This document shows, in pieces, positions 18,556 through 44,050 of a stretch of DNA of 64,000 nucleotides; position 1 is the first letter of the stretch; each line of letters starts with the position of its first letter. Source of the stretch: Promethearchaeota archaeon (lineage in GTDB: Archaea; Asgardarchaeota; Lokiarchaeia; Sigyniarchaeales; SOKP01); NCBI GenBank assembly GCA_048940925.1, contig JBHLOC010000011.1, positions 1-64,000 of the forward strand, written 5' to 3'. The notes beneath the pieces are model-generated. The model did not search any database, had not been told where the DNA came from, and saw only the letters and a program-made list of their open reading frames with translations. The translations under genes and the position numbers were made by a program.

Positions 18556-18578
18556 TATAAAGTTTTAAAAGGCTCTAG

Positions 18579-19073: not shown

Positions 19074-19457
19074 TATACTCTTAAGATCATGTATTTGTAG
19101 ATTCTAAAGAAGTATTATTAATCATTTTCTATTGCTTTTTTACATTACGATCTTTTACGGTTTTTTGCTTCATATATCAATTTTAGATGTTTTAAAACAA
19201 GAGTTTATCTAAATCTTAACTGAAAAAATTAAATAACATTAACATTTCTTCATTACCTCGAGCCCAATCTGAATGAATTTCAAAATAATAATTCTATAAT
19301 TTAAATATTACAGTATAAGAAAATAGAAAAGTCAAATTGACAAAAATAGAATTTATTTTATTTACTTATTATGTGTAATATTTTTAAAAGAAGTTAATAA
19401 TTAAATTATAAGGAAGAAATTCTTATAAGATAATAGTAAAAAAACCTAGGTTTTGAT

Positions 19458-20099: not shown

Positions 20100-20126
20100 G
20101 AATTATAAGTTTTTTATACGGAGATC

Positions 20127-20456
20127 TAGAGTGTCTCATATAAAATTGTTTTAGAAAGAAATATAGATATATATATCTCAGATTGTCATTCCTTTTTCCA
20201 AAATGTTTAAGTCTTATAAATCAATTGATATTTATTTTGATGGTGGAAAAAATCCCGTTCAAGGAAAGAAATCCAGAATATAAAACGAAATTAAGGCAAG
20301 AATTTGATAATCTTATCTAAGAAGTGAATTTTCAATATTAATTTTGGGAAAAACTTCATATAAGAATTATAAGAAAATAGATGAATTCCCTTTAATTATA
20401 AATTAAATCTAATTAACGTGATTCACATATTTTCTGAAATTATGAGGAGTGATGAA
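20127..20456 (+). repeat. Degenerate copy of the 18280 gene 3' part, plus the promoter and first codons of the 24001 MFS gene
   Basis: aaaattgttttagaaagaa...ttcaaggaaagaaatccagaatataaaacg matches 18334-18500; gtgattcacatattttctgaaattatgaggagtgatgaa matches 24001-24039. Confidence 0.85.
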
Positions 20457-20635
20457 TCATGTAAATAACAGTAGTGACGTAGAGCCATCAATCTTCTGAT
20501 CTAAGATAATAATGAAAAGACTCAGGCATGATTACTAGAACGGTTGCGACCATTATGTAAAAAGGAATTGCTAAATAATATAAACTTAATAGCCTTAGGT
20601 AAATCTATATATATAAAAACGAGAATTTTGTAATT

Positions 20636-22189
20636 ATGGGAATTATAGTAAATACTCCTTTAGGAAAAATTGAAGGATTTCAAGAATCAAATCATCAATC
20701 ATTTTTGGGGATCCGTTACACTAAACCACCTGTGAATGAATTACGTTTTTCTGCACCTCTCCCAGTTGAAGCTTGGGACGGTATCTATGATGCTAGTCAT
20801 TTTCGTCAGAGTGCGCCTCAATATGATGGGGGTCAAGGAACTATTAAAGATACTTCTGAAGATTGTTTATACTTGAATGTTTTTACTCCTAAGGCTAATG
20901 ATGCTAAAAGGCCGGTAATGGTATGGATTCATGGCGGGGGATTTGTATTTGGATCAGGTGGTATGGGTTATGGTAAGGGTTATGGAAAAAAAATAGTACC
21001 AAGAGGTAATATTGTTCTGGTTACAATCAATTATCGATTAGGGGTATTTGGTTTTTTTAATTGGCCTGGTTTAACAAAAAATAACGGTTTGTTGGATCAA
21101 ATTTGTGCTCTTGAATGGGTTAGAGATAATATCCGATATTTCGGTGGAGATCATAATAATGTAACGATTTTTGGCCAATCTTCTGGTGGAAGGGCAGTTA
21201 CGTCATTAATGGCAATGCCTTCTGCTAAGGGATTATTCCACAAAGCAATCCCCCAAAGTGGTACAGCACATCCTTATGCATATGATGATGCACCAAGTAA
21301 GAAAGCTTCAGAAGACTTGTTTGATGTATTAGGAATTAAGATTGGGGATTTAGATTCATTACGAGAGGTAGATTGGACTGAATTGAATAAGGCTCAACAT
21401 GAAATTTTCGGTAAATTAAATCCAAAAGAACATCGAATTTTGTTTCCTTTTAGACCAATAATTGATGAGGAGACTATTCCAGTTTTACCTTTGGATGCCA
21501 TTCGGAATGGTTTCGCAAAAGATATTCCTTTACTTATTGGAAACACTTTGGATGAGAGGAAAGTCTATAATAGAGGATTAATCCGAGCAAACCAAATTGA
21601 AGTAATACATAAAAGACACGAAAAAATAGATGAGGCTAGTCTTTTAAGATTTACTAATAAATATATGAAATTCTACGGTAAAACAGAAGACGATGCAAAA
21701 ACATTAATTGAGACTTACAAAAAAGCTAGAAAGGGTAAATTGCCAATAGAACCCTATGAGATTGGGTATACTATCAACACTGATGAGGCATATCGAATAC
21801 CAATCATCCGAATTGCTGAAGCACAATACCAAAATCAACAAAATACTTATTGTTACCTATTTGGATTTGAATCACCTCTACATAAGGATTTACTCGGAGC
21901 ATGCCATACAATTGATTTACCGTTTATTTTCGGAACTTATGACCATTCAAACCCGAATACAGAAGTAATGGTTGGACGTGATAATATAGAGGAACTTGAA
22001 ACATTTTCAAATTTAGTCATGGATGCATGGATTTCTTTTGCCAAAAATGGAGACCCAAATCACCCAAGGCTTCCCAAATGGCCAAAATACGAACTGAATA
22101 ACCGTGCTACAATGATACTCAAACCAAATCCAGAAATTGTCAATGCACCAATGGACGAGGAACGCTCTGCATGGGAAAATATACTTTGA
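20636..22189 (+). CDS. Carboxylesterase type B (para-nitrobenzyl esterase-like)
   Basis: SEDCLYLN, WIHGGGF, NYRLG, FGQSSG, GACH. Confidence 0.95.
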   Translation: MGIIVNTPLGKIEGFQESNHQSFLGIRYTKPPVNELRFSAPLPVEAWDGIYDASHFRQSAPQYDGGQGTIKDTSEDCLYLNVFTPKANDAKRPVMVWIHGGGFVFGSGGMGYGKGYGKKIVPRGNIVLVTINYRLGVFGFFNWPGLTKNNGLLDQICALEWVRDNIRYFGGDHNNVTIFGQSSGGRAVTSLMAMPSAKGLFHKAIPQSGTAHPYAYDDAPSKKASEDLFDVLGIKIGDLDSLREVDWTELNKAQHEIFGKLNPKEHRILFPFRPIIDEETIPVLPLDAIRNGFAKDIPLLIGNTLDERKVYNRGLIRANQIEVIHKRHEKIDEASLLRFTNKYMKFYGKTEDDAKTLIETYKKARKGKLPIEPYEIGYTINTDEAYRIPIIRIAEAQYQNQQNTYCYLFGFESPLHKDLLGACHTIDLPFIFGTYDHSNPNTEVMVGRDNIEELETFSNLVMDAWISFAKNGDPNHPRLPKWPKYELNNRATMILKPNPEIVNAPMDEERSAWENIL

Positions 22190-22227
22190 ATTAAAATCTG
22201 TTTTTTACAGCAAACATACTTGAGATT

Positions 22228-23688
22228 ATGGAGGAAAAGAAGACAAAAGAAAACCGAATAGCTGAGTTAATTAAAACTGTGAGGAAAGATCCTCATTTAG
22301 CTTCATCTCAGTTGGATTTTCCGTCTATTACTGAACCATTAGCTAAATACATTTCAGAAAGCCAATTTACTACAATCCCAGATGATATACTCGAACTTGC
22401 TAAACGTCATATTTTAGATACTTTGGTCTCAATGGTGGTTAGTACACAGTTAAAACCTTCTCGTCTTGCTCGCCAATTTGCCATATTTAATAGTGGAAAA
22501 GCTGATACAGCACATTTACTTACTACAAGTCAAACCACCACCTTATTGGATGCTATTTTTGCAAATGCAGTAACAGCTCATGCTTCAGAAATAAATGATT
22601 TTTGCCCTTCCGCTTTCGTGCAACCTGGTCCTCCAATTATATCTACTGTATTATCTATTGGAGAGACTATAGAAGCATCTGGGCAAGAAATACTCAAAGC
22701 AGTTGTTATTGGTTATGAAATTGCTTGTAGGCTACCAAAAGCTTTGGGTACGATGAACCTACGTACAGCGGGATTATCATCCCATGGTGTCGGACCTACA
22801 TTTGGTGCTGCAGCTGCAGCTGCTTCACTTTTAAAATTACCAAAAAGGTCAATTGGATATGTTTTAGCCTATTGTGTTCAACAAGCATCAGGTTCCTTTA
22901 ATTGGCTTCGCGATGAAGAACATATCGAAAAAGCTTTCCTTTTTGCTGGAATGCCTGCGAGAAATGGAGCATTTGCAGCTTTGATGGTTCATAACGGATT
23001 TACAGGTGTAAAAGATCCTTTTAAGGGAACACCAAACTGGTTGCTAAGCTCCATATTTATTGGAATTGATTCGGATCTTGATTTAAATAAGTTAATCCAT
23101 AATTTAGGAGTAGATTACGAGATGCCTTTAGTAGGTTACAAACGATATCCTGTAGGGGGTCCACTCCAAGCCAGCATTGAGGGATTAATAGAATTAATAA
23201 AAAAGATAGACCGAACATCAATTGTTAAAATTGAAATAAAGATGCCTGGAAATACAAGAGTTTTTTCTGAAGCGGTAATGCCAGCATTAAATTTACGATA
23301 TTTGGCAGCTGTTATTTTAGAAGATGGTGACCTATCCTTTAATATGGCACAATCTCATGAACGTATGTCCACTGAAACTATTAGAGAAAAAATGGATTAT
23401 GTTACCTTAATCCATGATCCCAATCAAGAAAAAGAGCCCCGTATAGAATCAGCACTAGTAAAAGTGATACTAAAAAATGGCGAACATCATGAGATTTTCA
23501 TTGAACACGTCCTTGGATTCCCTGAACGACCTATGAATCACCAAGATGTTGAAAATAAAGCTAAAAGCTTAATTACACCTATATTAGGTCACTCAAAAGC
23601 AAATAAATTAATTGAAACAATATGGAACCTTGAATCCTTACCAAATATCCAATCAATTATTCCGTTATTAATTCCACCAGATAATTAA
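22228..23688 (+). CDS. MmgE/PrpD family protein
   Basis: AKRHILDT, AHASEINDF, GYEIACRL, KRYPVG, GFPERPM. Confidence 0.9.
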   Translation: MEEKKTKENRIAELIKTVRKDPHLASSQLDFPSITEPLAKYISESQFTTIPDDILELAKRHILDTLVSMVVSTQLKPSRLARQFAIFNSGKADTAHLLTTSQTTTLLDAIFANAVTAHASEINDFCPSAFVQPGPPIISTVLSIGETIEASGQEILKAVVIGYEIACRLPKALGTMNLRTAGLSSHGVGPTFGAAAAAASLLKLPKRSIGYVLAYCVQQASGSFNWLRDEEHIEKAFLFAGMPARNGAFAALMVHNGFTGVKDPFKGTPNWLLSSIFIGIDSDLDLNKLIHNLGVDYEMPLVGYKRYPVGGPLQASIEGLIELIKKIDRTSIVKIEIKMPGNTRVFSEAVMPALNLRYLAAVILEDGDLSFNMAQSHERMSTETIREKMDYVTLIHDPNQEKEPRIESALVKVILKNGEHHEIFIEHVLGFPERPMNHQDVENKAKSLITPILGHSKANKLIETIWNLESLPNIQSIIPLLIPPDN

Positions 23689-23724
23689 TCATCCAAATAA
23701 ATATTTAGTTACAATTTTTGATAA

Positions 23725-23800
23725 CCCTTCAAGGAAAGAGATCCAGAATATAAAACGATTTTAAGACAGGAATTTGCTAGTTATATCAAAGAAGAAAATT
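23725..23800 (+). repeat. Third degenerate copy of the 18280 gene 3' end
   Basis: cccttcaaggaaagagatccagaatataaaacgattttaagacaggaatttgct matches 18442-18495 and 20255-20308. Confidence 0.85.
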
Positions 23801-24000
23801 TAATTCTCCAATTTCATCCAAAATATAGGAATAATGAGTTTAAGAATCTATTTAATTTTTTAGAGATTCACACTATTATAATTTGCAACTTATTGGGGGA
23901 AAAAATATCACTTAATTGTAGATTTGGGTTAAAATGCGTTACATAAAATTTATAAGAACATGGATGATATCCCATTATTTATAAATTAACTCTAATTTGA

Positions 24001-25386
24001 GTGATTCACATGACTTCTGAAATTATGAGGAGTGATGAAGTAGAATTTGCAACGTCAACTTCTAGACGAGATGTATTTTTCTGGGCTATGTATGATTTAG
24101 CAAACACTATTTATTCAATGATTATAGTCAGTTTAATTATTAATCGTTATATACTAGTGATTGGTCAGGTAGAGAATGGATTGGAATATGGTGAAGTCAG
24201 CTTTCTTTTTGGTTTGGTTAGTTTCATTATGCAAGTTGGAATCGCAATTTGTGTTCCTATTTTAGGAGCATTAAGTGATACTGTTGGAAAGCGTAAACCG
24301 TTTGTAATTAGTTTAACTGGTGTTATTCTTCTTTTTGCAAGCCTGCTTGGCTTTTTCCATGATCTTACAACGGTATTACTGTTATATGTAATTGCAAATG
24401 TTGCTTATCAATTTAGTCTTGTTTTTTATGACGCGATGCTTCCATTCATAGCCAAAAAGGAAGATATTGGAAAAGTTGCTGGATTCGGGGTTGCATGGGG
24501 ATACTTGGGAACTATTCTCTCTCTAGCTATTATGTATCCATTAATATTATTACTAGGTGATACAGTATCGACTCCACCTACACCAGAGTACGGATTTGCA
24601 GGATACTGGTTTACATTTGTTATACCTATGGTTCTTTTTTTGATTTGTGCTATTCCATTTCTTTATGTTCACGAAAAGCAAAAAATAGGTAAGCGACCAT
24701 CTATAGGGAAGTTAATTAAAAATACTTTTAAACAGATAGGAGGTACATTTAAGGATATTAGAAAGCATAGATCAATGGTTATCTTTATTATTGGTTACTT
24801 TTTTGTTGCAGACATTGCTAATGTTATAGTTCTCTATATGACACCAATAGTAACTGATGGTTTAATTATAGCAGGGGGATCAACCTTATTTGCCATCCTT
24901 TTTATAATAATCTCTACTATTTCAGCAGTAGCTTTTACCTATTTTGTAGGTAAATTTGGTGAAAAATATGGTGCAAAAAAAACGTTTTACCTTGTAGGCG
25001 CTTTATGGGGAATTGCTTTAAGTATAGGGATAATATTAGTATTCACAACGCAATCTATAGAGATTGGTGGAAATCTTCCTTTTATATTAAGTCTTTTAAT
25101 GGGTATTGTGGCAGGACCTGCTCTCGGAGGAACTTGGACAGCACAACGAATTATGGTCTTTGAACTCGCTCCCAAAGAAAAATTTGGAGAATTTTTTGGT
25201 TTTTCTAAATTAAGTGGAAAATTTTCTTCTGCACTTGGTCCATTTGTTTGGGGCTCTGTTATGTTAACTTATGATATAATCGGTAAAGTTGCATATGGTT
25301 GGGCTATGATATCTGTCGGTATTATATTGGGAATAGGAATATTGATTATTTCATTTGTAAAAGGAAATCAATCTGAAAATAATTAA
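24001..25386 (+). CDS. MFS transporter (UMF1/ATG22-like)
   Basis: WAMYDLAN, GALSDTVGKRK, VFYDAMLP, GEFFGF; 12 TM. Confidence 0.9.
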   Translation: MIHMTSEIMRSDEVEFATSTSRRDVFFWAMYDLANTIYSMIIVSLIINRYILVIGQVENGLEYGEVSFLFGLVSFIMQVGIAICVPILGALSDTVGKRKPFVISLTGVILLFASLLGFFHDLTTVLLLYVIANVAYQFSLVFYDAMLPFIAKKEDIGKVAGFGVAWGYLGTILSLAIMYPLILLLGDTVSTPPTPEYGFAGYWFTFVIPMVLFLICAIPFLYVHEKQKIGKRPSIGKLIKNTFKQIGGTFKDIRKHRSMVIFIIGYFFVADIANVIVLYMTPIVTDGLIIAGGSTLFAILFIIISTISAVAFTYFVGKFGEKYGAKKTFYLVGALWGIALSIGIILVFTTQSIEIGGNLPFILSLLMGIVAGPALGGTWTAQRIMVFELAPKEKFGEFFGFSKLSGKFSSALGPFVWGSVMLTYDIIGKVAYGWAMISVGIILGIGILIISFVKGNQSENN

Positions 25387-25799
25387 TAATTTTTTCTCCT
25401 TTTTTTTTTTTCCATTTATTTTGGGGGAAAATACTGAAAAAAAGATTTCTTTTACTTTCAAAACTTGTATCAAACTTATTTAATTGCGAAAATTCTTCAA
25501 TTTGCTTTCATAATATCTCAAATTTAATAATTCTTATTTTAAATATTTATAATGCAAAATTCATAGTTGATTTATATTCTAATGATAAAAGAAATACCTT
25601 AAAGAAACCTAATTATAGAATTAAAACTGTTATTAAAAATGAATTTCTTTTAGAAAAACAACTTGTTTGGTAAGAAACCCTGAGATAAATAAATTTGATC
25701 CTACCACAAAATGATATTTCACTAAATTTGTTGAGAGTTTTTTCTTAAATTATTGTATTAATATACGGAAATTAAAAGGAACTAAGTGAGGGATTATAT

Positions 25800-27913: not shown

Positions 27914-28663
27914 TTAAAGTGCCTTTCCTTGTTCTGCCACTGCGTTTATAGCTTTTTGAATTTCTTCAGGATTTCCAAGATAATAATGTTTTATTGGTTT
28001 TAAGTCATCATCTAATTCATATATTAAAGGAATTCCCGTCGGAATATTTAATTTTAGAATCTCCTCATCAGAAATATTATCCAGATATTTAACAAGAGCT
28101 CGTAAACTGTTACCATGAGCAGAAATCAAGACTTTTTTATCAAATTTGATTGTAGGTGCTATTGTATCATGCCAATAAGGTAATACTCTGTTGACCGTAT
28201 CTTTTAAACATTCAGTCAAAGGAATTTGATCAGCAGTTAACTCTGCATATTTTCTTTCATTACCAGGATATCGAGGATCTGTTGTTTTAAGAGGAGGAGG
28301 TGGGACATCATAACTTCTTCTCCAAATCAACACTTGTTCTTCACCCATTTCAGCGGCCATTTTTGCTTTGTAAAATCCTTGTAAGGCTCCATAATGTCGT
28401 TCATTCAATCTCCATGACCGATGAACTGGAATCCACATTAAATCCATCTCTTCTAACACAATCCACAGAGTTCTTATACCTCTTTTAAGTACTGATGTAA
28501 ATGCAATATCAAATGAATATCCACCATCTTTTAATAATCTAGCTGCTTCTTTCGCTTCTTGAATCCCTTTTTCCGAAAGATCTACGTCAGTCCAACCTGT
28601 AAACCGATTTTCTTTATTCCAAATACTTTCCCCATGTCTTAAAAATACAATTTTATACATCAT
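27914..28663 (-). CDS. gpmA: 2,3-bisphosphoglycerate-dependent phosphoglycerate mutase
   Basis: [52 protein letters not shown]. Confidence 0.97.
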
Positions 28664-28780
28664 ATATCAGCTTCTTGACTTATAATAATTGTAATATTAG
28701 AATGTTTAAATTTTAATAAATATCTCTTATTTTTTAAATATATAGATTGTTCAATGATTCTTTTTTTAGACTTAAAAAGT
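28574..28780 (+). repeat. Direct repeat, left copy (gpmA 5' end and upstream region)
   Basis: 28574-28650 identical to 35234-35310 (77 bp); next 40 bp have 6 mismatches; weaker similarity beyond. Confidence 0.95.
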
Positions 28781-28938
28781 AAAGAATAGAAGAAGGAAAG
28801 AAAAATTAATAATTTTTCATTAAATTGACTTTAAATTGACAAAGGTATAAGTAATTGACAATCATAACTTTATATATTAATTTGATAATGTAATCTAATT
28901 AGTTAAGAATATGTTTCAAAGATAAGAAGGTAAATCTA

Positions 28939-31104
28939 ATGGCTTATGTGAGTTTAGATGATGAAAATTTAGAAGTAAAAAAGGGTAAATTGGATCTAAG
29001 TTCGAGAAACATTAAGGATATAACTGAAATTAAGGGTTTAAAGAATTTTTCAGATATACAAGTTTTGTATTTTAATAAAAATGAAATTAGGGAGATTAAA
29101 GGTCTAGAAACACTCAAGAATTTACGAATCTTAGACTTAAGCGATAATTTAATTAATGAGATTAAAGGTCTAAAATTTCTTAGTAAGTTACAGTGGTTAG
29201 TTCTTAGAAATAATAAAATAACCGAGATTAAAGAATTGAATTATCTTAGAAATTTAAAAATATTAAATCTACAACATAATGAAATTACTGAGATTAATGG
29301 ATTAGAAACACTTACTAACTTACAAGAATTAATACTTAATGATAATAAAATTACGGAAATTAAAGGATTAGAATATTCAACCAATTTACAAGAGTTGGAC
29401 ATTATAAATAATCAAATTACCACAATTAAGGGATTAGATCTTCTTACTAATTTAGAACGATTATCACTTAATAAGAATCAAATTTCTAAAATTATTGGTT
29501 TGGAAAACCTAATAAACTTAAGGGAGTTGAGTCTTGCTGGAAATCAAATCACTCATATTAATAATTTAGAAAGCCTCACGAAATTAAGAGTACTAAATCT
29601 TAGTAACAACCAAATTATAGATATTAAAGGATTAGAATCCTTAGTTGGTTTAAAATTTTTAAATCTTAAAGATAACCAAATACCTGCAAAATTAATTAAA
29701 AATTTAGGTGGATTGAATCAAAAAGGTATCGCAAATAATCCACAAACATTTGTTGAATATTGTCAAAAGAGATTGGAAGCGAAAAGAGAAGAGAAGGAAA
29801 GAAAACGGGCTAATGCTATTCATTACATTAAAAAATTACCGAAGATATATAGTGAAATTACATTTGAAAAAATTATGTCAAAAACAGGGATTAATTTGGA
29901 GGAATTAGAGCACCTAATTGAGACAATGATTTTTAACAAAGAAATTAATGCCCAAATTAGTGGTACTAAATTAATTTTCAAAAGAAAGGAAGAAAAACCA
30001 TTTTCTAGATCTGAAAAAGTAACACAAATCCCTTTAACCATCAGTGAATATAGAAGTAGAAACATTGAAATATCAAGAGGTGGAGATTGGAAAATTGAAG
30101 GAAACCAGAGCGTATTTCATTATAAAGTAAAAATAAAAAATTTATCTCAGTACATTATTTCAGATATCCAAATAATTTTTGGTGATGTACCACAGGGATT
30201 AGAATTAAGAACAGAGAAATTAATTGAATTTTCAAAATTAAGCCCATATAATGTTGTTTCACCTACATACAAGTTGTATGCTACTGATAACTGTGTTGGA
30301 AGTGAAATAAAGGGCATTGTTAATTATAGTGATCATTTTGGAAAAACATATACAGTTAAGATTGAGCCATTTGAAATTCATTATGTGTGTAATTTACTTA
30401 TACCAAAGAGGATTTCTAGAGAGGAATTTGATAGAAAGATACAATTCATGCGAGGGAGAACAATGATAATTGATAGTAGCCTAAATCCAGATGAACTAAA
30501 AACCATTGTCAAAAAGAACATAGAAGAATGCAATTTTGCTTTACTTCAGGAAATTAGAGATGCCCAAAAGGAAGGATTTATGAGAATAGAAGGATTAGCG
30601 CAAGGTCTGTATGATAAACAAGATGTTGCTATATCAGTTGCTATGAGGCGATTAGAGGCGGGATCAGAGCTAAAAATCAAGACTTTAAGCGATGAATACG
30701 CAAAGACTACTGATCTTATGAGAGATATTAGTATTAAATTAGAGGATATTAAAAGTGATACTCAAAAAATTGAAGATATTATTTATTATATTGATGAATC
30801 AAAAATTAGAGAAACAATAGGTATAATTATTCAAAACCCAAAAGACTTAAAAAGAGTGATTTATAAAGTTATAAAAAATCCCGAATGGTCTGATGAAGAA
30901 AAAAATAAATGGGCAAAAATTGTAATGGAAACTCTTAATTATTATAAGGTATTTAAACCTCCACTATGGTTAAAATTCGTCCAAAAAATTACCAAAATTA
31001 CTTTAGGAGAATCTGCATCAAAAGCAATTACGAATGGAGTTGAACAATTAGTAAATTGGATAAATGGAAAAGTTGTTAAAAAAAAAATGAAAGAAATGAA
31101 TTGA
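28939..31104 (+). CDS. SDS22-like leucine-rich-repeat protein with PCI-like winged helix and adaptin-appendage-like C-terminal region
   Basis: About 10 22-aa LxxLxLxxNxIxEIKGLE repeats; YSEITFEKIMSKTG...LIETMIFNKEINAQI; beta-sandwich followed by LLIPKRISREEF. Confidence 0.8.
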   Translation: MAYVSLDDENLEVKKGKLDLSSRNIKDITEIKGLKNFSDIQVLYFNKNEIREIKGLETLKNLRILDLSDNLINEIKGLKFLSKLQWLVLRNNKITEIKELNYLRNLKILNLQHNEITEINGLETLTNLQELILNDNKITEIKGLEYSTNLQELDIINNQITTIKGLDLLTNLERLSLNKNQISKIIGLENLINLRELSLAGNQITHINNLESLTKLRVLNLSNNQIIDIKGLESLVGLKFLNLKDNQIPAKLIKNLGGLNQKGIANNPQTFVEYCQKRLEAKREEKERKRANAIHYIKKLPKIYSEITFEKIMSKTGINLEELEHLIETMIFNKEINAQISGTKLIFKRKEEKPFSRSEKVTQIPLTISEYRSRNIEISRGGDWKIEGNQSVFHYKVKIKNLSQYIISDIQIIFGDVPQGLELRTEKLIEFSKLSPYNVVSPTYKLYATDNCVGSEIKGIVNYSDHFGKTYTVKIEPFEIHYVCNLLIPKRISREEFDRKIQFMRGRTMIIDSSLNPDELKTIVKKNIEECNFALLQEIRDAQKEGFMRIEGLAQGLYDKQDVAISVAMRRLEAGSELKIKTLSDEYAKTTDLMRDISIKLEDIKSDTQKIEDIIYYIDESKIRETIGIIIQNPKDLKRVIYKVIKNPEWSDEEKNKWAKIVMETLNYYKVFKPPLWLKFVQKITKITLGESASKAITNGVEQLVNWINGKVVKKKMKEMN

Positions 31105-31118
31105 TTTTTTAAAATCTA

Positions 31119-34100
31119 TTATCTTGTGATTTCCTCATAAAGCTTTTGGATAAATCCTTCGAAATCATCTTTTGTATATTTCACGTTTAACATCTGCCAT
31201 AATAATCGAGGGATATTCTCTTCATCTTCATAGACAGGGATAATTTTCATTAATCCCTTTTTAACCATTTGATAAGCGGACTGCCATTCTCCTTTGACAG
31301 CTTCAGATTTTATCGAATTCTCTGAACAAAATAAAATAAATGCGTTGGTTTTTCTAAGAGTCTCTTCCATAAATTCTACAATATTTTGTTTGCTATCAAC
31401 TTCCCAGAATAACACTTCATTAATTTCGGGATAAAGTTGCAAACGTCTAACAATTTTTGAGACTTGAAAGTGATCAGTATCTAATGTGGAATAACTAATA
31501 AAAACATTCAGTTTCACTGCTTTTTCCTCTGTCGGTATAGCAGCTACAGCAGCTGCCTCTATAGCAAGAGCTTTAGAACTCGAGAAATATTCTCCTTGAA
31601 TCTCTTTGTTTCTAATCATATCTTGAATGACACTCTCAATTAGAGCTTCATCTAAAACACCACTTTTTTCGCTAATGTCGATGAGCTGTAAACGAGTAAA
31701 CCTTGCTCCTAGAGTAAAAATCGTCTGTTTAATTCGATTAATAGTCTCTATTTCTGATCTTTTACAGGTAACTATCATTTCTTCAGCTTTATTTTCTATA
31801 TCCATTAAATGTTGATTTTGAGCTTCCTTTTGAATCTCAACTAAGTTTTTTAATGCCATATCCAATTTATTCTCTTTAATTAAAGATTCAACGATAGAGA
31901 GTCTTTTTTGAAGTTCTTCCTGAATTAATTTCTTCTGTTGCTCAATTTCTTCTCTTTCTTTTTCTAATCTATCCTTTTCCCTCTTTTCTTCTGCTGTTAC
32001 TAATAATCCATATACTTCTTTTTTATAGACCGCGATTGCGTCTTCAGCTTTAGCAATATCTAATTCGATTTTTTCCCTATATTCATTTAAGTCATATTTC
32101 ATGGCAATTTCTTTCGATTCATTAAAGCTTGTTATTGCTTGGGATACAGTTTCTATCGCATCATTATATCTTTTTTCTTTAGCAAGTCCATTAGCTGTCT
32201 CAACGAGAGATATAGCTTTATCATAAAATTTATCAACTTTGATAGTATGAATCTTACTTCTAAAAGAATCGATTTGATCGTTTATCATAGGTATAAGATT
32301 AGAATTGAAAATATCAGCTTCTTTTTTAGCATTTCCTAATGAACTAATTGCTTTCTCATAATATTTTTTTGCTTTGCCAAGGTTACCAGCTACTATAGCC
32401 GTTGTTGCATCTTCTGTTAAAGTTTTGACTATTCTTACTATTTTTTCGTAATTCTTCATTGCTGCTGAAACCTTCTCTTCTTTTTTAATCACTGCTTTAG
32501 GTTTTTCTTCTACTAGTTTCTCTTTAACTGGCTTAGGTTTAGGAGGTTTCCTTTTCTTAGTAACCACGAAAAAAGTTACTACCGTCAATCCTGCAATGGC
32601 TCCTACTATAATGCCGATAATTAATATCAGGTTAATTGGGTGTTTGGGAAGCTTAATAACAATTTGTAGAACATTCGACTCAGTTTGTCCGTAACTATTA
32701 TAAGCAATCACAATATAATAATAATCCCCAGTTGATAATCTAGAGATAGTGTAAGGGGAAATTGCATTCTGATATTCGAGTGAAGTTATACTTGCATTTA
32801 TTTCTGAAATATACCTATGGTAAGTATATAATGAATAATTATCTGCATTGTCAGAAGAGGTCCAATCTAGTCTAATGTTGCCATCAGTATCCGGGTTGCC
32901 TGCATCGGAAGTTAATTGAAAGGAACCTGGTAGACGACTTGCGAGTGTTTGCAACCACTTTACCGTATAAAAATCAAGTCTTCCTAAAACATTGTAACTA
33001 ATTCCTTGCACATCTGCTCTATGAACTTCTTGTGCAAAATAAACATATGTTGGTATGTGGGTGCAGGATCCAGGTGTATCAAGACGCACATCATAAATAT
33101 AGGATTGCAAGTCCATCCATTTTATTAGTTGAGCATTATAGTCAGTTTCAGATACCGCATCATCTATTTGCTCTATTAAACCGCCAGGACTAGTATCGTT
33201 ATTTCGAGAAAAACAGGATTTGGAAGCTAAGTTGAATAATGGAACAATCATGCTATATGGATTAAGGTAATCAGGAGCCCAACCAATTGTACTAACATCC
33301 ATCTCCCATGGTGTTTGTTGTCCCGTATCTCTATACTGATTCCAATCTCTTTCTGTTACACTACAATTTATTCCTATTAACTTCCAGTTAGCCATGAATA
33401 AATTATTCAAATCCAAATTGAGAGTTGAATTCAAAAATTGATTTAATCTTATATTTCTTCCAAGGAGATTTGTTCCTGTCCAATCGGCCTCGTTAAGCCC
33501 CCCATAGGTTACATCCCATCCAGAAATATCTGCACCTGGCAACTGACTATTATGATCTTTCATGATTTGTCTTGCCCATTCAATGGAGGCTGTATAACCA
33601 TTATCAATAGTATAATTGTGACCCATATAAACCGAAGCATTATGACCAGCCATCGAGCGTGGTATAGCGGGGATTCCATAAGTGGCTTCTCCAGCTAGAA
33701 TCTCTTCAATCATTTTTGTAGAGTTTAACGATATAGCCATAGCCCTTCTCAACCATGAAGGATTTCGCTGCTGTTGATAATCATATGGTATTATCATTGT
33801 ACCATTCGCATATTTTGGACCACAATATATCTCAATATAATTATAAGCCATACTTTCACCAACATCCTCTACGTGCATAATTTCTGTAGCTCTAAAGCTG
33901 TCAATATATGATTTTGGTACATCTGTAACGTAATCATAAATCCCTGTTAATCCAGCATTCATTCTAGTTGACTCTTTCTCAACGATGTACCAGATCATTT
34001 CTTCAATTTCTGCTTTTCCACGCCAGTAGTTATCATAAGCATGAAAGCGAATATCAAGATCTTCTCTATAATTATCATAGATAAAAGGACCTGTACCAAT

Positions 34101-34796
34101 TATTTTGTTAGTTGTTAGGTTAAGATAATTATATTTAGGAGTAGATGAAGGAGATAAGATCGAACTAGCAGGAAAAGTTAATAAATCTAATAATGAACTA
34201 AATGGGACGTTTAAATTTATGGTAAAGTTGTAAGCGCCATCACTTTCAAAATCTTTGAAAAGATATGTACCATTTACCAAGTAATATAACTCTGATGGAG
34301 AAGCAGTCCAACAAGTCGAATTTTGAGGGAGAGTACCAGATACATTACAAAAATACATAAGCCTTTCAAAATTCCATTTAACAGCAGTAGCATTTAATGG
34401 TGTTCCATCATGGAACATTATGTTTTCTCTAATCTTAAATGAAATTCTTGTACTATTTTCCCAAATCCAGTATTCAGCAAGCAAAGGCATTATCTCATAG
34501 TTAGGATGGGATGATAAATCGTATTTAACTAATCCTTCTACAACTTGGTATTGCACATTCAATGAAGGCATATCCCAACTAGTGACAGGATCAAGTGCGT
34601 GTGGATTGAAACTAAATCCTACGATAAATGGTTTAATAGATGTATTTTGACTTGAAATAGGAATTGAGTCAAGGGAATACTGACTATTAATATTTTTATA
34701 TTTTGGATTTATTACAATTAAACTTATCGAATTTGACAAATTTGCGATTAAAATTAGAAAAATTGGGAAAAAACGCCTTATTACACTTTTATTCAT
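31119..34796 (-). CDS. Single-pass receptor-like protein: SBP family 5 ectodomain, FN3-like, TM, helical/coiled coil, PCI-like wHTH, TIR domain
   Basis: N-terminal hydrophobic signal; LDP..VEGL..PLLAE.W..FHDGTPLNATAVKWNFER..GTGPF; TM LILIIGIIVGAIAGLTVVTFFVVT-KKRK; VFISYS...FILFCSENSIKSEAVKGEW. Confidence 0.88.
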   Translation of the reverse strand: MNKSVIRRFFPIFLILIANLSNSISLIVINPKYKNINSQYSLDSIPISSQNTSIKPFIVGFSFNPHALDPVTSWDMPSLNVQYQVVEGLVKYDLSSHPNYEIMPLLAEYWIWENSTRISFKIRENIMFHDGTPLNATAVKWNFERLMYFCNVSGTLPQNSTCWTASPSELYYLVNGTYLFKDFESDGAYNFTINLNVPFSSLLDLLTFPASSILSPSSTPKYNYLNLTTNKIIGTGPFIYDNYREDLDIRFHAYDNYWRGKAEIEEMIWYIVEKESTRMNAGLTGIYDYVTDVPKSYIDSFRATEIMHVEDVGESMAYNYIEIYCGPKYANGTMIIPYDYQQQRNPSWLRRAMAISLNSTKMIEEILAGEATYGIPAIPRSMAGHNASVYMGHNYTIDNGYTASIEWARQIMKDHNSQLPGADISGWDVTYGGLNEADWTGTNLLGRNIRLNQFLNSTLNLDLNNLFMANWKLIGINCSVTERDWNQYRDTGQQTPWEMDVSTIGWAPDYLNPYSMIVPLFNLASKSCFSRNNDTSPGGLIEQIDDAVSETDYNAQLIKWMDLQSYIYDVRLDTPGSCTHIPTYVYFAQEVHRADVQGISYNVLGRLDFYTVKWLQTLASRLPGSFQLTSDAGNPDTDGNIRLDWTSSDNADNYSLYTYHRYISEINASITSLEYQNAISPYTISRLSTGDYYYIVIAYNSYGQTESNVLQIVIKLPKHPINLILIIGIIVGAIAGLTVVTFFVVTKKRKPPKPKPVKEKLVEEKPKAVIKKEEKVSAAMKNYEKIVRIVKTLTEDATTAIVAGNLGKAKKYYEKAISSLGNAKKEADIFNSNLIPMINDQIDSFRSKIHTIKVDKFYDKAISLVETANGLAKEKRYNDAIETVSQAITSFNESKEIAMKYDLNEYREKIELDIAKAEDAIAVYKKEVYGLLVTAEEKREKDRLEKEREEIEQQKKLIQEELQKRLSIVESLIKENKLDMALKNLVEIQKEAQNQHLMDIENKAEEMIVTCKRSEIETINRIKQTIFTLGARFTRLQLIDISEKSGVLDEALIESVIQDMIRNKEIQGEYFSSSKALAIEAAAVAAIPTEEKAVKLNVFISYSTLDTDHFQVSKIVRRLQLYPEINEVLFWEVDSKQNIVEFMEETLRKTNAFILFCSENSIKSEAVKGEWQSAYQMVKKGLMKIIPVYEDEENIPRLLWQMLNVKYTKDDFEGFIQKLYEEITR

Positions 34797-35233
34797 TTTC
34801 TTTACCCTTTATTTTTATAATTGAAACTAAAATGAGTTTAGATTGTTTTCAAAATTTCTGTTTAACACTATTGTATATTGTATAATATATAATTTTCATA
34901 TCATCATATATAATACTTTTTACATCATAGTCTAAAGTCTTTTAAAGTAGCCTATAAGATATAATATTCAAAACAAGGTCTCCTTAATTTTATTTAAAAA
35001 GCATGTTTCAAAATAAAGTTAAAACCAGTAGAATTAGCATCAAATGCAATTACAAATTAAGTTGAAACAGAAATAACTAAAAAAAAATCTAACGGATGAT
35101 GATATTGGTCTACATGAGATATTTTTACTACTTTCCTTATAATTTTAAAAAATACATATATATGAATCGATCCGCAGAAAAATTAGTACATATAAAAATC
35201 AAATTCAATGGGAAAGTTATTTAAAACACATTG

Positions 35234-35440
35234 CGAAAGATCTACGTCAGTCCAACCTGTAAACCGATTTTCTTTATTCCAAATACTTTCCCCATGTCTT
35301 AAAAATACAAGTTTAAACATTATATATCAATTTCTTGACTTATAATAATCGTTCTAGTAAAATACTTAAAAATTAATATTTATCTCTCTTAATTCTAATT
35401 TTTAGAAGAATTTAATGGTTTTCTTTTTGATCTTAAAATG
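35234..35440 (+). repeat. Direct repeat, right copy: orphan gpmA 5' fragment ([29 protein letters not shown] on the minus strand) plus upstream region
   Basis: Matches 28574-28780 at offset 6660. Confidence 0.95.
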
Positions 35441-35594
35441 TTATAAATGGGAACTGTTCCTTTGAAAGTTTTTGCTTGATAATTACTTTTCTTTTGAAAA
35501 CTTTAATTCGATAAGAAAGTTATTTAAAGCCATTAGAGAAATATTATTTACATTAATTAACTTTTCCAAAAATTTAAAAAAAAGAGGTTATATC

Positions 35595-36962
35595 ATGTCA
35601 GAAAATAGTAGTGTTCGAATATATACTACAAAAGATAAATTAATATGGGGACTTGCTAATTTTGGAACTTCAATCATTCAAGGTGTTTTTGCAACTACGA
35701 CAGTAATTTTTTATCATGTATTTTTGAATTTAGATCCAATTTTAATAGCACTTGCTGCTGGGATCTATTTGGTCTGGAATTCGTTAAATGACCCAATTTT
35801 TGGGTATTTATCAGATAAAACTAGAAGTAAATTAGGACGTCGCATTCCATATATGAGATTCACAGCACCTTTTCTTGCTTTAACATTTATTATATTTTGG
35901 TTCGTACCTGTAAATTTTGATCAACTTTCCATCTTTCTCTGGATGTTAATATTGATGAGTTTGTATGATACCTGTTATACTATAATTGGTTTAGTATATT
36001 CTGCGCTATTACCTGAATTGAGTGAAGATGATAAAGTAAGAGGTCAACTTCAACAATATAGTTCTATATTTTATTTAATAGGAGCAATCTTTGGTTTTAT
36101 TATCCCTGATCTTGTCAGACCTGAAGTGGGACAAACAAATTTAACATTATTTTATATTGGAATGATACTAGTTGGATTAGTTGGAGCTACGTGTGTAATA
36201 TTAACAACGTTTAGATTTAAAGAACGTCCTGAATTTACCCAAGTCGATGAACCGCTAAAGCTTGGTGCAGCAATTAAATATACTTTTAAAAGTAAAGCGT
36301 TTTTGATATTAACGGCAGCTAATTTCATGTCAGTCTTATTTCAACAGATTATTTTGAGTTACATGTTTTATTTGGCTGATTATGTTATGATGGTTTCTAC
36401 AATAATTTTATTAGCAGCTTTAGTTGGAGGGATAGTTGTTGGTGTATTCTTCACAAATATTCTTGCTGGTAGATTAGGAGTTGTTCAAGCAAATCAAATT
36501 CATCTAGGCTTCGGTGCTATCTTTTTAATAATTATACCATTTGTACCAGACATATTGATTTATATAAGTCTGTTTATTGGAGGAATTGGATTAGCTGGAC
36601 CCTTAGTATTAACAAATGTCCTTTATAGTCAAGTTACTGATGAGGATGAAATAAAATCAGGAGTTAGAAGAGAAGCTGCATTTTTCGGTACTAATGCCAT
36701 GCTTACTAAACCTGCTCAATCTGTCGCTATTGCTATCGGTCCATGGTTATTATCTCTCGCTGGATTTCTAACTGAAGAAATATCTCAACCTTCTAGTGCG
36801 ATATTTATGATAAAACTTATAATAGGACTAATTCCTGGTATTGCTATGATAATCGCTGTTATTCTTCTTATATACTATCCGCTTAAAGGAGATTATTTAA
36901 AAGAAATTCAAGAAAAAGTATTGCAAATGCATGCTGAAAAGCATGCAAAATTACAAGAATAA
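35595..36962 (+). CDS. MFS transporter, glycoside-pentoside-hexuronide (GPH) family
   Basis: WNSLNDPIFGYLSDKTRSKLGRRIPY, DEDEIKSGVRREA; ATG 35595 follows GAGG. Confidence 0.9.
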   Translation: MSENSSVRIYTTKDKLIWGLANFGTSIIQGVFATTTVIFYHVFLNLDPILIALAAGIYLVWNSLNDPIFGYLSDKTRSKLGRRIPYMRFTAPFLALTFIIFWFVPVNFDQLSIFLWMLILMSLYDTCYTIIGLVYSALLPELSEDDKVRGQLQQYSSIFYLIGAIFGFIIPDLVRPEVGQTNLTLFYIGMILVGLVGATCVILTTFRFKERPEFTQVDEPLKLGAAIKYTFKSKAFLILTAANFMSVLFQQIILSYMFYLADYVMMVSTIILLAALVGGIVVGVFFTNILAGRLGVVQANQIHLGFGAIFLIIIPFVPDILIYISLFIGGIGLAGPLVLTNVLYSQVTDEDEIKSGVRREAAFFGTNAMLTKPAQSVAIAIGPWLLSLAGFLTEEISQPSSAIFMIKLIIGLIPGIAMIIAVILLIYYPLKGDYLKEIQEKVLQMHAEKHAKLQE

Positions 36963-42972: not shown

Positions 42973-43015
42973 TAAACGGAAAGTGTATTTTGTTAATACC
43001 GAAATTTAAGAGGAT

Positions 43016-44050
43016 TTAATCATTTACTTTAATAATTAATCGTGGCCAACCATTAAATCCATCATTTAATATTAAATCATTCTGTGGTTGTGTATTATTA
43101 TGAATATCAGTTGCTTTAGTGTAAAGAGAAAATGTCCCTGATACATTAAAAGTAATATTTATTTCCCAAAATACCCATACATGATCTTTATCAATTGATT
43201 TTACAATGGTTACTTGAGTCCAATCCAATCCCATATTAATTGTATACTCAATTTTTGAAATTCTTGTTCCGCCAAAACCAGCACCCCCTATTGTGAGTGG
43301 AATACCAACAGTAATATTTACATTATCGTTAGGAAAAAATATTGTTGAATCAACAGGCATAGGAGGGGATGTGTCCCAACCTCTATCGTCCCAATAATCC
43401 TCAAGTGGTCTATCTATGACTTCTATTTCTACTACCCATGCTGGTTGTTTTGCACCGTAATATCCTGGATTTACTATTCTGAGAGGGAAACCTTGATTAC
43501 GAGGTAAGATTTCTCCATTCATATATAAAGCACCTATGGTTCCATTATTTTTCAATTGTTCAAGTGTGTGAGAGACATAATATCCATCTGCCGCTTTATA
43601 CTTTACACCAGTCGCATTTTCCTTTAAACCAAGAGACTTTAAAAAATCGTATATTAGGAATCCTTTCCATACTGCAGTTGATAAAAGGGGTCCTTTAGCT
43701 GGATTACCAATACATTCAGTTGTGAGAGTTTGTTCAACTAAATCTAACGCTTGTAATTCAGTAAGATTAAACTTTTTTGGATTATCGATTTTACCCCATA
43801 CATTGAGAGTATATGTATTAGAATCAATATAAGGAGCAAATCCTATCCTTGTTATAAAATAATCTTTATTCTTTGTTATGAAATCTGGAAATCTATCATA
43901 ATCGTTTTCAGAAGGTTTTTTAGATGTTTTTTCAGATCCTAAAAATGTAATACTGATAGCTATGCTTGATACAATTAAGATAACAACCAAGGTTAAGATG
44001 AGTAATTGTTTTGTTCCTTTTGATAAAGAAAAACGAGTTTTTAGTTTCAA
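43016..44050 (-). CDS. Membrane-anchored sulfite-oxidase-family molybdopterin oxidoreductase
   Basis: N-terminal TM; TECIGN, AVWKG, AADGY, MNGEILPRNQGFPLR, PGYYGAK; C-terminal Ig-like dimerisation domain. Confidence 0.9.
   Translation of the reverse strand: MKLKTRFSLSKGTKQLLILTLVVILIVSSIAISITFLGSEKTSKKPSENDYDRFPDFITKNKDYFITRIGFAPYIDSNTYTLNVWGKIDNPKKFNLTELQALDLVEQTLTTECIGNPAKGPLLSTAVWKGFLIYDFLKSLGLKENATGVKYKAADGYYVSHTLEQLKNNGTIGALYMNGEILPRNQGFPLRIVNPGYYGAKQPAWVVEIEVIDRPLEDYWDDRGWDTSPPMPVDSTIFFPNDNVNITVGIPLTIGGAGFGGTRISKIEYTINMGLDWTQVTIVKSIDKDHVWVFWEINITFNVSGTFSLYTKATDIHNNTQPQNDLILNDGFNGWPRLIIKVND

Follow-up and report, generated by a model that had tools for sequence, protein, structure and literature searches.

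A TIR receptor gene and a putative adaptor gene on a lineage-specific insertion at the start of gpmA in a Loki-type Asgard archaeon

What brought a pair of convergent genes to the 5′ end of the glycolysis gene gpmA in a Loki-type Asgard archaeon, and what might the two encoded proteins do? The locus lies on a 102-kb contig of a Promethearchaeota MAG (G000; 4.8 Mb in 90 contigs), and the window is the 64-kb stretch of that contig that was analysed. An initial annotation had reported a 77-bp perfect direct repeat extending into diverged gpmA start and upstream sequence, with gpmA intact on the left and an orphan 29-codon N-terminus on the right, and each of these observations holds on re-examination. 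Exact identity extends over 77 bp and no further (28574-28650 = 35234-35310), diverged similarity continues for about 96-130 bp, and the 6,660-bp block bracketed by the repeats adjoins the start of gpmA, which is itself intact. The only long open reading frames between the two copies are the convergent genes 28939-31104 (+) and 31119-34796 (-), which lie 14 bp apart and are the sole cargo, as had been proposed. Rfam and tRNA scans found no RNA genes in the 64-kb window.

Comparison with related genomes, the check suggested by the initial annotation, shows the 6.66-kb two-gene segment to be a lineage-specific insertion into the gpmA/MFS intergenic and 5′ region. In the closest relatives (G018, G001 and G007), synteny and alignment place gpmA and the MFS gene side by side with only one copy of the repeat, which represents the empty site, while in several further congeners gpmA stands beside a hexapeptide gene; the block is absent from the gpmA site of all congeners compared. 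The single site of G018 (C51, 11370-11574) aligns to both flanks of the block over 204 bp. As a result of the insertion, gpmA and one promoter copy are retained on one side, with the first 30 gpmA codons and the core promoter contained in the left repeat copy, and an orphan 29-codon gpmA start and a second promoter copy stand opposite. Orthologues of gpmA share 72-81% nucleotide identity across the genus. The spacer upstream of the receptor gene has no homologue elsewhere in G000, in the fetched loci or in 54 genus genomes. The features of the locus are collected in Table 1.

Table 1. Features of the inserted block and its flanks, in window coordinates
Feature	Position	Strand	Basis or remark
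gpmA, intact, 249 aa, histidine phosphatase branch 1	27914..28663	-	Pfam His_Phos_1 E 7e-32
Left repeat copy	28571..28746	.	77-bp perfect core 28574-28650 = gpmA codons about 5-30
Left copy, outer part	28651-28746	.	gpmA start and promoter region; 74% identical to right copy
P0001 non-coding leader	28747..28938	+	genus matches begin at 28835-28838
P0001, 721-aa cytosolic adaptor (predicted)	28939..31104	+	Pfam, AF2 model, Foldseek, VIA-align, hydropathy scan
P0001 LRR	28996-29733	+	Pfam LRR_4 5e-38
P0001 PCI-type winged helix	29791-29979	+	Pfam PCI 3.4e-7
P0001 Ig sandwich of adaptin-appendage fold	30055-30408	+	AF2 model, Foldseek, VIA-align
P0001 platform of adaptin-appendage fold	30409-30738	+	AF2 model, Foldseek, VIA-align
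P0001 helical tail	30739-31101	+	AF2 model; low model confidence in tail
P0002, 1225-aa type I membrane TIR receptor	31119..34796	-	Pfam, TM scan, AF2 model
P0002 TIR	31122-31511	-	Pfam TIR_2 1e-14
P0002 Glu1170 codon	31287-31289	-	
P0002 PCI-like winged helix	31542-31751	-	Pfam PCI 16.7 bits, sub-threshold (cut-off 22)
P0002 helical/coiled-coil region	31752-32555	-	
P0002 TM, single	32556-32642	-	TM scan
P0002 Ig-like domain	32643-32939	-	
P0002 SBP_bac_5 ectodomain	33231-34496	-	Pfam 8e-46
P0002 signal/anchor	34707-34769	-	
AT-rich unique spacer, 434 bp, upstream of receptor gene	34797..35230	.	ends at novel junction with gpmA fragment
A9 run (T9 on minus strand) in spacer	35079-35087		
Novel illegitimate junction, spacer to gpmA fragment	35230/35231		
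Right repeat copy	35231..35406	.	orphan gpmA 5′ fragment and diverged gpmA promoter copy, oriented toward receptor gene
Orphan gpmA fragment, 29 codons	35234-35320	-	sits inside 45-codon ORF
MFS_2 transporter gene, native right flank	35472..36962	+	Pfam MFS_2 3e-54; synteny

The origin of the segment can be approached through the divergence of the repeat copies. Over 176 nt (28571-28746 versus 35231-35406, at a spacing of 6660) the copies are 86% identical, being identical at 77/77 positions in the core and at 71/96 (26% differences) in the next 96 bp. At the single site of G018, 8 of the 77 core positions differ, and the outer, upstream part is closer to the left copy (82/96 matches) than to the right copy (75/97), a difference that is weak on its own. 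The two copies are thus more diverged from each other (26%) than the left copy is from G018 (15%), yet G018 carries no insert. This mosaic of a perfect 77-bp stretch followed by 74% identity suggests that one copy was imported, and the divergence outside the core points to homology-driven insertion of congener DNA rather than to att/integrase integration. The import is read from the divergence of this one 96-bp segment, since no donor or near-identical block was found in 54 genus genomes, 30 relatives, JGI metagenome contigs and GTDB genome contigs; none of these other genomes has the pair next to gpmA. The LRR gene near gpmA in G003 was considered as a counterpart and rejected, as it encodes an unrelated 218-aa LRR protein and lies behind another gene. 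To leave a perfect 77-bp core, import would require either a conversion tract across it or unusual conservation of that stretch.

The initial annotation had likened the arrangement to an att-type integration. In an explicit version of this idea the 77 bp would be the att core of a site-specific integrative element remnant or satellite, with its integrase lost or supplied in trans and the block excisable as a circle, which would agree with the perfect core, the restored target gene, the targeting of a conserved gene at its 5′ end, and the occupation of different loci by the pair in different genomes. However, integrase-mediated islands carry a recombinase in or beside the element, and open reading frames and Pfam searches revealed none in the block or its flanks, nor is there an integrase on the 102-kb contig; the recombinases of the 4.8-Mb assembly amount to one tyrosine recombinase located elsewhere (PF00589, C41) and one broken resolvase (PF00239, C79). 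The identical core is accompanied by orthologous pairs that reside at other loci in G008, G045 and G050, and these loci are not gpmA, which speaks against site specificity; in G008 and G050, the two checked, the pairs have no flanking repeats. A second G000-specific insertion 8 kb away (42994-44282) shows the same kind of imperfect target duplication with an unrelated 19-bp core. With no recombinase in the block or contig and copies only 74% identical outside the core, the att-like integration was not borne out and such an element is very unlikely; the 74% identity fits imported homeologous DNA and homologous recombination better than an att core, as judged from the aligned copies.

The closest documented scar is insertion with long target duplication (Nobusato et al. 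2000, as cited in Furuta, Abe & Kobayashi 2010, PMC2853133), which likewise involves blocks of less than 20 kb without mobility genes, repeats of more than 30 bp matching one sequence in a relative, and a target gene that stays usable. The same features are found here, where both repeats align to one G018 site and flank a 6.66-kb insert with no mobility gene among its Pfam matches. The published cases are bacterial restriction-modification genes with repeats mostly 94-100% identical, and that survey contains no archaeal case (PMC2853133); the present locus differs in its Asgard host, receptor-adaptor cargo and mosaic repeat. The possibility that about 200 bp of the genome's own gpmA 5′ region were duplicated de novo, the copies then diverging until gene conversion recently homogenised the 77-bp core, is compatible with the G018 alignment, with the second example in the window and with the bacterial precedents, whose repeats of 46-423 bp also come without mobility genes (PMC2853133). 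It is nevertheless unlikely, as the 0/77 versus 25/96 differences are incompatible with uniform decay of a dead copy, under which the core should have accumulated roughly 10 differences or more. In addition, the 26% divergence between the copies exceeds the 15% between the left copy and G018, so de novo duplication would require either an insertion that predates the split and was later lost by G018, or a promoter copy that evolves very fast.

An exact match of 77 bp in a MAG of 90 contigs also raises the question of assembly, as 77 is a common k of de Bruijn assemblers and an empty gpmA-MFS chromosome could have been threaded together with a separate molecule, such as a 6.66-kb circle, or with a strain variant sharing the 77-mer. 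For this reason every local exact direct repeat of the 4.8-Mb assembly was listed: a length of 77 bp is not over-represented, and longer exact matches (92-259 bp) are resolved within contigs. The fusion of the orphan gpmA fragment to cargo DNA furthermore implies a real molecule that carries it, a 6.66-kb circle without a replication gene is unlikely, and the same scar type recurs at 42994-44282 with its 19-bp core. An assembly artefact is consequently highly improbable.

The best explanation of the locus as a whole, and one that is reasonably probable, is the homology-driven insertion of an imported congener segment carrying a functional receptor-adaptor pair. The segment would have come from an unsampled member of the same genus and entered by homology-dependent recombination without a site-specific recombinase, such that the flanking copies would be the native and the imported (homeologous) version of one gpmA 5′ region and the abrupt switch from perfect to diverged sequence would mark a crossover or conversion tract. 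Candidate routes include a Campbell-type single crossover of a circularised fragment, homology-facilitated illegitimate recombination, and allelic transfer of an already scarred locus. The first two share with the present locus short chromosomal homology on both sides, one novel junction (35230/35231) and the lack of a recombinase gene, and are known from laboratory constructs and naturally transformable bacteria; we know of nothing reported on DNA uptake and recombination in Promethearchaeota. Excision of the block by recombination between the 77-bp repeats is a candidate possibility.

The gene next to gpmA encodes P0001, in which the hydropathy scan detects no signal peptide and no transmembrane segment. 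The LRR assignment of the initial annotation stands, but the protein is predicted to be cytosolic and is better named an LRR-PCI-adaptin-appendage adaptor. Its PCI domain (PF01399) scores 24.2-30.8 bits, above the Pfam gathering cut-off of 22, and in the predicted structure this is followed by the bipartite arrangement of appendages, an Ig-like beta-sandwich and then an alpha/beta platform. The model matches the AP2 alpha ear in Foldseek (E 3e-9), and VIA-align gives Z scores of 15.2 with the alpha-adaptin (205/248 residues), 13.7 with the beta2-adaptin and 12.7 with the gamma-COP appendages, the high rmsd (8-12 A) arising because the angle between the subdomains differs. The HEAT-repeat trunk and hinge of adaptor-complex subunits are absent, the N-terminal part consisting of the LRR and PCI winged helix instead. 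Within the same genome, the winged helix and appendage core is homologous to a Vps28_C-containing protein (G000:C86; hhalign 96%, E 1.6e-9), with the aligned part comprising the winged helix and Ig region only. Neither Pfam nor hhalign to that protein detects a Vps28_C domain, a steadiness box or any Pfam match in the P0001 tail, so the ESCRT link is indirect. A PDB profile search with the family alignment was dominated by LRR matches, with nothing on the tail, and querying the ESM Atlas with the C-terminal half gave no more than weak archaeal Ig and PCI clusters. In other Promethearchaeota, P0001-type cores are fused to TPR, WD40 or NosD. In the leader, local BLAST finds 28835-28886 again ahead of the LRR-gene orthologues of G008, G045 and G050, and this conserved segment is the probable promoter of the P0001 gene.

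P0002 was originally labelled a TIR receptor, a description confirmed by its TIR_2 domain and type I topology. N-X-S/T sequons are distributed 19 outside versus 1 inside, and the AF2 model has a pLDDT of 87, reaching about 90 in the TIR domain. The latter belongs to the TIR superfamily by both sequence (TIR_2 at 55.3 bits versus a cut-off of 28) and fold, with Foldseek matches of the AF2 model to SARM1, SPARTA, TLR2, TLR10, TLR1 and MyD88; SPARTA TIRs superpose best (rmsd 2.8-3.1 over about 137 residues, 22-25% identity). Glu1170 aligns with the glutamate of the Cat1 motif 'DELEQAY' and is invariant in 40 family members, and with this catalytic glutamate, by which enzymatic (NADase) TIRs are recognised, the domain is a putative enzyme. 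PF01399 is present in some P0002 homologues, and weak TPR and MIT matches in the juxtamembrane region (E 0.002 to 3) were set aside. The genome encodes 11 TIR paralogues with variable sensor domains, and its ten other TIR receptors have no such adaptor gene alongside.

The association of the two genes extends beyond this locus, as the initial annotation had anticipated by proposing that they co-occur elsewhere. Orthologues of P0001 (65-70% amino acid identity) were identified in G008, G045, G050 and a JGI contig (L039), and a convergent TIR receptor gene stands beside the P0001 orthologue in 5/5 loci, with a gap of 14 bp in G000 and 69-116 bp in the others. These pairs occupy at least three genomic contexts (gpmA, PHO4 and MCP/ferredoxin) and were found in only four of the 54 genus genomes, at other loci; no TIR gene occurs near about 12 more distant appendage paralogues, within a flank of about 8 kb each. 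Among the partner receptors the winged helix (78-84% identity) and TIR domain (88-92%) are strongly conserved, while the ectodomains either share 27-34% identity or belong to different types; the LRR region among P0001 orthologues is fairly conserved (62-66%). BLASTP of the P0001 winged helix against that of P0002 gave nothing significant, and in a profile-profile comparison of the two proteins the winged helices are the best match (hhalign E 0.048), which is not significant alone. On comparative genomic grounds, P0001 and P0002 are a co-inherited functional pair.

Our best guess at its activity is ligand-gated TIR signalling with a dedicated adaptor. P0002 would act as a single-pass receptor with an extracellular SBP_bac_5 domain for ligand recognition; the ligand is probably a small solute such as a peptide, and its binding would change the oligomeric state of the cytoplasmic module of coiled coil, PCI winged helix and TIR. 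The TIR domain, through Glu1170, is then predicted to cleave NAD+, to make a nucleotide signal or to act as an assembly scaffold. P0001 would be the dedicated cytosolic adaptor docking on the conserved winged helix-TIR module, possibly by PCI-PCI pairing, with its LRR and adaptin-appendage surfaces recruiting further partners; judging by proteins related to its core, these may belong to ESCRT-type sorting machinery.

The immunity role raised by the initial annotation would instead make the pair an abortive-infection or antiviral module, in which the TIR NADase depletes NAD+ upon a danger signal and the LRR protein is an intracellular sensor. The invariant glutamate at the catalytic position, the nearest structures, which include the SPARTA, SARM1 and Cat1 NADase TIRs, and the patchy distribution of a mobile pair in a genome with many TIR paralogues and variable sensors are all consistent with such a module. 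However, neither protein matches a PADLOC family (PADLOC-DB 2.0, E <= 0.01), none of the four genomic loci contains defence genes, the part that varies is an extracellular sensor of solute-binding type whereas known TIR defence systems sense phage otherwise, and the LRR region is not hypervariable. The immunity role is thus unsupported and has a low probability. Thoeris ThsB, SPARTA TIR-APAZ, CRISPR-associated Cat1 and SARM1 share with P0002 a TIR_2-type domain with the conserved glutamate, but the Thoeris, SPARTA and Cat1 partners ThsA, Argonaute and CARF are absent here.

In topology, signalling as proposed for the pair resembles that of Toll-like/interleukin-1 receptors, which are type I single-pass proteins with the ectodomain outside and a C-terminal TIR inside, and a separate cytosolic adaptor is here encoded alongside. 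The P0002 ectodomain differs from that of Toll-like receptors in consisting of SBP_bac_5 and Ig-like domains rather than LRRs, the LRR residing on the cytosolic P0001 such that no single chain has the order LRR-TM-TIR. P0002 further carries a coiled coil and PCI-like winged helix before its TIR and keeps the catalytic glutamate of enzymatic TIRs, and P0001 is an adaptor without a TIR or death domain. There is no evidence for common descent of P0002 and the Toll-like architecture. P0001 resembles the Asgard appendage, HTH/PCI and repeat proteins linked to ESCRT-I/II (Makarova et al. 2024, 10.1101/2024.02.06.579148), sharing with this described class a repeat domain, a PCI winged helix and an Ig plus platform unit. 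It differs in having no detected Vps28_C or steadiness box, and the available text of that work lists no LRR among N-terminal repeats, has no occurrence of 'TIR' or 'LRR' and does not mention gene linkage to a TIR receptor. A literature search yielded no paper describing Asgard transmembrane TIR receptors or a receptor-adaptor pairing.

The insertion provides a clean, datable example of gene gain, with the empty site in hand and without mobile-element enzymes, in relatives of eukaryotes, and the second example 8 kb away hints that Asgard gene flux routinely proceeds through cassettes inserted at gene ends by homology. As a speculative and rather improbable extension, a Loki-type Asgard pathway following an innate-immune and endocytic logic known from eukaryotes might run from a family of single-pass receptors with swappable ectodomains through PCI-TIR modules and an LRR-PCI-appendage adaptor to ESCRT-type sorting, the unit spreading between strains as a recombination-borne cassette. 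The cargo brings together LRR proteins, which are abundant, ESCRT-linked adaptin-appendage/PCI proteins and TIR domains, so far described separately in Asgard genomes, and unites these three protein classes in a single conserved pair whose topology is receptor-like. If P0001 and P0002 interact, the LRR/appendage proteins would gain a concrete, testable partner, and receptor-to-TIR signalling with a dedicated adaptor would be placed on the archaeal side of eukaryogenesis.

The 6.66-kb block at the 5′ end of gpmA is an insertion flanked by two gpmA-derived direct repeat copies. The window is positions 1-64000 of contig C55 in an assembly of 4.8 Mb and 90 contigs, and close homologues of its proteins come from MAGs that carry a Promethearchaeota (Loki-type Asgard) label. 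GC content runs from ~23 to 38% across the window, and the block does not stand out in composition. To the left of the exact repeat core similarity ends sharply, with the left copy continuing into the gpmA body and the right copy into unrelated DNA; to the right the copies agree at 71 of 96 positions, and similarity fades beyond. Repeat search and an exact-match check agree with the perfect core and diverged extension described in the initial annotation, and ORFs and a domain match likewise confirm gpmA as intact on the left, with a 29-codon orphan, kept within a 45-codon ORF, on the right. The cargo is as first described, two convergent genes 14 bp apart encoding the adaptor P0001 and the receptor P0002, with no other long ORF between the copies. 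The orphan gpmA start and promoter copy (35079-35406 region) are co-directional with the receptor gene and lie upstream of it, 527 bp from the start codon. Between the promoter copy with its 45-codon ORF and the receptor gene, a T9 run on the minus strand at 35079-35087 may be a putative archaeal terminator halting read-through.

Features of the gpmA block, the second insertion and related loci in the same assembly
Feature	Location	Strand	Description
Direct repeat pair	28571-28746 and 35231-35406		176 nt, 86% identity, spacing 6660; repeat search
Exact repeat core	28574-28650 = 35234-35310		77 bp, maximal exact match
gpmA	27914-28663	-	249 aa, full-length histidine phosphatase
Adaptor gene (P0001)	28939-31104	+	721 aa, LRR-PCI-appendage
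Receptor gene (P0002)	31119-34796	-	1225 aa, TIR receptor
Second insertion	42994-44282		1.3 kb, 8 kb from block, specific to this genome; radical SAM gene on one side, DUF4184 gene on the other
Molybdopterin oxidoreductase gene	43016-44050	-	Sulfite-oxidase family; sole gene of second insertion
Vps28_C-bearing protein	C86:27008-28810 (L080)		PCI-type winged helix, Ig part of adaptin appendage, C-terminal Vps28-like region (PF03997, 24.7 bits)
Tandem TIR receptor array	C34:69662-90080 (L015)		Five co-directional genes: 1597, 506, 995, 986, 979 aa

The nearest of 30 relatives by DNA search, G018, has flanks 81-87% identical and carries the empty site. On its contig C51 the two flanks of the block align side by side and overlap by 204 bp, the repeat region in single copy, and contig-scale comparison gives a clean 6.46-kb gap at the block position. 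In a three-way alignment G018 tracks the left flank until the repeat and the right flank beyond it, and inside the repeat is a mix of both copies. The proposed insertion is therefore upheld, with the site empty in G018 and in two further relatives, G001 and G007, where gpmA also adjoins the MFS gene; in several other relatives it adjoins a hexapeptide gene. A presence/absence search across 54 genomes of the genus found no block-like sequence at gpmA. The probability is low that the contig instead threads together, through a shared 77-mer, a chromosome with the empty site and a separate circle of 6.66 kb. The exact repeat does have the length of a common assembler k, 77, but among local exact direct repeats genome-wide this length is not over-represented, those of 92-259 bp are resolved within single contigs, no replication gene lies in the block, and the cargo DNA joined to the truncated gpmA start must exist on some real molecule.

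Attachment-site-like integration, as initially proposed, is wrong or unsupported, since neither the block nor its neighbours contain a recombinase gene (ORFs and Pfam) and the whole assembly has one tyrosine recombinase (C41), together with one resolvase-like gene interrupted by a stop codon (C79). The repeat copies differ at none of 77 bp and then at 25 of 96 bp, and against G018 the core has 8 mismatches in 77, while the left upstream segment matches at 82 of 96 positions and the right at 75 of 97. The copies diverge from each other more than the left copy does from G018, though G018 has no insert. A simple history of duplication and subsequent decay is unlikely, because nothing would keep a dead gpmA fragment unchanged as the promoter copy next to it accumulates 26% divergence. 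The simplest reading would be that the cargo brought one copy with it from a different lineage within the genus, probably the right one, though 82 against 75 matches is a weak contrast for telling the native copy from the imported one. The identical 77-bp stretch would be a crossover or conversion tract, and candidate routes include a Campbell-type single crossover with a circularised donor fragment, homology-facilitated illegitimate recombination, and flanking homology moving an already scarred locus. The footprint matches insertion with long target duplication, which has been described for bacterial restriction-modification genes in a survey without an archaeal case (PMC2853133). The scar is an archaeal member of this type, and its archaeal host is what is new.

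The second insertion shows the same kind of imperfect target duplication as the block, in which the end of the radical SAM gene is repeated over ~75-100 bp around a 19-bp identical core, and its target is present in one copy in G018. Other differences between the two genomes include a replacement of 6.9 kb (18498-25437), where G018 has 5.6 kb of non-homologous sequence instead (C51:15958-21605), and lineage-specific indels at 46376-48706 of the window and at five intergenic sites of G018. At one of these G018 sites the target is duplicated over 38 bp (query overlap 18013-18051). Long exact direct repeats of 113, 71 and 49 bp also occur on single contigs (C46:917/9048, C41:150564/159038 and C50:318/5106, respectively), spaced 4.8-8.5 kb, and may mark further repeat-flanked insertions.

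Adaptor orthologues (65-70% amino acid identity along their whole length) occur in three related genomes (G008, G045, G050) and on a JGI contig (L039), and the two-gene unit holds at each of these four loci, where a TIR receptor gene lies tail-to-tail with the adaptor gene, 69-116 bp away. Neighbours of the pair are gpmA and MFS genes at the block, PHO4 in G008 and G045, and MCP and HATPase genes on one side with ferredoxin and SDR genes on the other in G050. No TIR gene was found in the available flank (~8 kb) of about a dozen distant appendage paralogues (27-52% identity). Compared with P0002, the partner receptors are 88-92% identical in the TIR domain and 78-84% in the winged helix, 38-41% in the transmembrane segment, 29-48% in the membrane-proximal cytoplasmic part and 27-34% in the ectodomain, unless the latter has another domain set (SBP5 and NosD in G008, NosD in L039). 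The adaptor gene and the 3′-terminal third of the receptor gene thus stay together, contiguous at 28835-32240 with ~75% nucleotide identity. A conserved winged helix-TIR part with a variable ectodomain is expected if the adaptor works with the former while ectodomains swap; the pattern is also compatible with recombination simply moving this stretch as one piece. In G008 (C6, L013 12620-16711) a second TIR receptor of 1363 aa (Peripla_BP_6, fn3/PKD repeats, NosD, transmembrane segment, TIR), its TIR 62% identical to that of P0002, lies on the other side of the adaptor gene. The G045 contig (L059, JBHLRA010000227.1) is titled 'Candidatus Thorarchaeota archaeon', probably a loose submitter label, although the search tool assigns its genome to the genus of this assembly and G008, both labelled Promethearchaeota.

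P0002 combines SBP_bac_5 (residues 101-522, E 8e-46) with TIR_2 (1098-1218, E 1e-14), and hydropathy gives an N-terminal signal/anchor at 10-30 and a single transmembrane segment at 719-747. The location of 19 of 20 N-X-S/T sequons before this segment fits an outside-N, inside-C orientation. Between the SBP domain and the transmembrane segment lies an Ig-like domain that shares 43-50% identity with the fn3/PKD units repeated in a G008 paralogue. The cytoplasmic part is helical to about residue 1015, followed by a winged helix whose PCI match falls below threshold (16.7 bits), and PF01399 is present in some homologues. The TIR in the predicted model of residues 940-1225 (pLDDT 87) superposes on SPARTA TIR-APAZ (rmsd 2.8-3.1, 22-25% identity) and on SARM1, TLR2, MyD88 and Hydra TRR-2. 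Glu1170, invariant in a 40-sequence family alignment, aligns with the Glu of the Cat1 motif DELEQAY. The coiled coil-winged helix-TIR module is common to 82 clusters, a large family confined to Asgard lineages as far as sources name organisms, with ectodomains that include SBP_bac_5, NosD/beta-helix, Peripla_BP_6, FG-GAP/PQQ propellers and fn3/PKD. The assembly encodes 11 TIR ORFs. Five form the tandem array on C34, where at least one receptor has a NosD/beta-helix ectodomain; others are on C10, C59, C77 and C18 (two adjacent).

P0001 has Pfam matches to LRR_4 (E 5e-38) and, on the isolated domain, PCI (E 3.4e-7), and hydropathy detects no signal peptide or transmembrane segment. A model of residues 270-721 built from 37 sequences comprises a winged helix, a nine-strand beta-sandwich, an alpha/beta platform (sandwich and platform pLDDT ~85-92) and a poorly modelled helical tail. 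Adaptin and COPI appendages rank first with both Foldseek (AP2 alpha ear E 3e-9, then beta2 ear, gamma-COP and BBSome GAE-platform domains) and VIA-align (Z 15.2, 13.7 and 12.7, with ~200 of ~240 residues aligned). In other Promethearchaeota the winged helix-appendage core is fused to TPR, WD40 or NosD repeats. The core is homologous to the Vps28_C-bearing protein of the same assembly (hhalign 96%, E 1.6e-9), which is a paralogue of this core and a likely ESCRT-linked adaptor, and Pfam and hhalign detect no Vps28_C or steadiness box in the P0001 tail. At phmmer/jackhmmer sensitivity P0001 is the sole gene in the assembly with this C-terminal module. The architecture class has been described in Asgard archaea, with ESCRT-linked cargo-adaptor roles proposed for it (Makarova et al. 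2024, 10.1101/2024.02.06.579148).

As a best guess, we infer for the pair a scheme of ligand-gated TIR signalling. The SBP ectodomain would catch a peptide or other solute, the single transmembrane segment and coiled coil would relay a change of oligomeric state, and the TIR would be switched on as an NAD+-consuming enzyme or assembly platform. P0001 would bind the winged helix-TIR module, most obviously through PCI-PCI pairing, and its LRR and appendage would recruit further proteins. An antiviral abortive-infection role is possible given the conserved Glu, patchy distribution and paralogue expansion, but neither protein has a PADLOC match and there are no defence neighbours, which leaves the immunity role in the initial annotation wrong or unsupported. 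No paper among those searched describes the P0002 receptor family or its pairing with P0001, and the receptor-adaptor pair is a new combination built from known parts.
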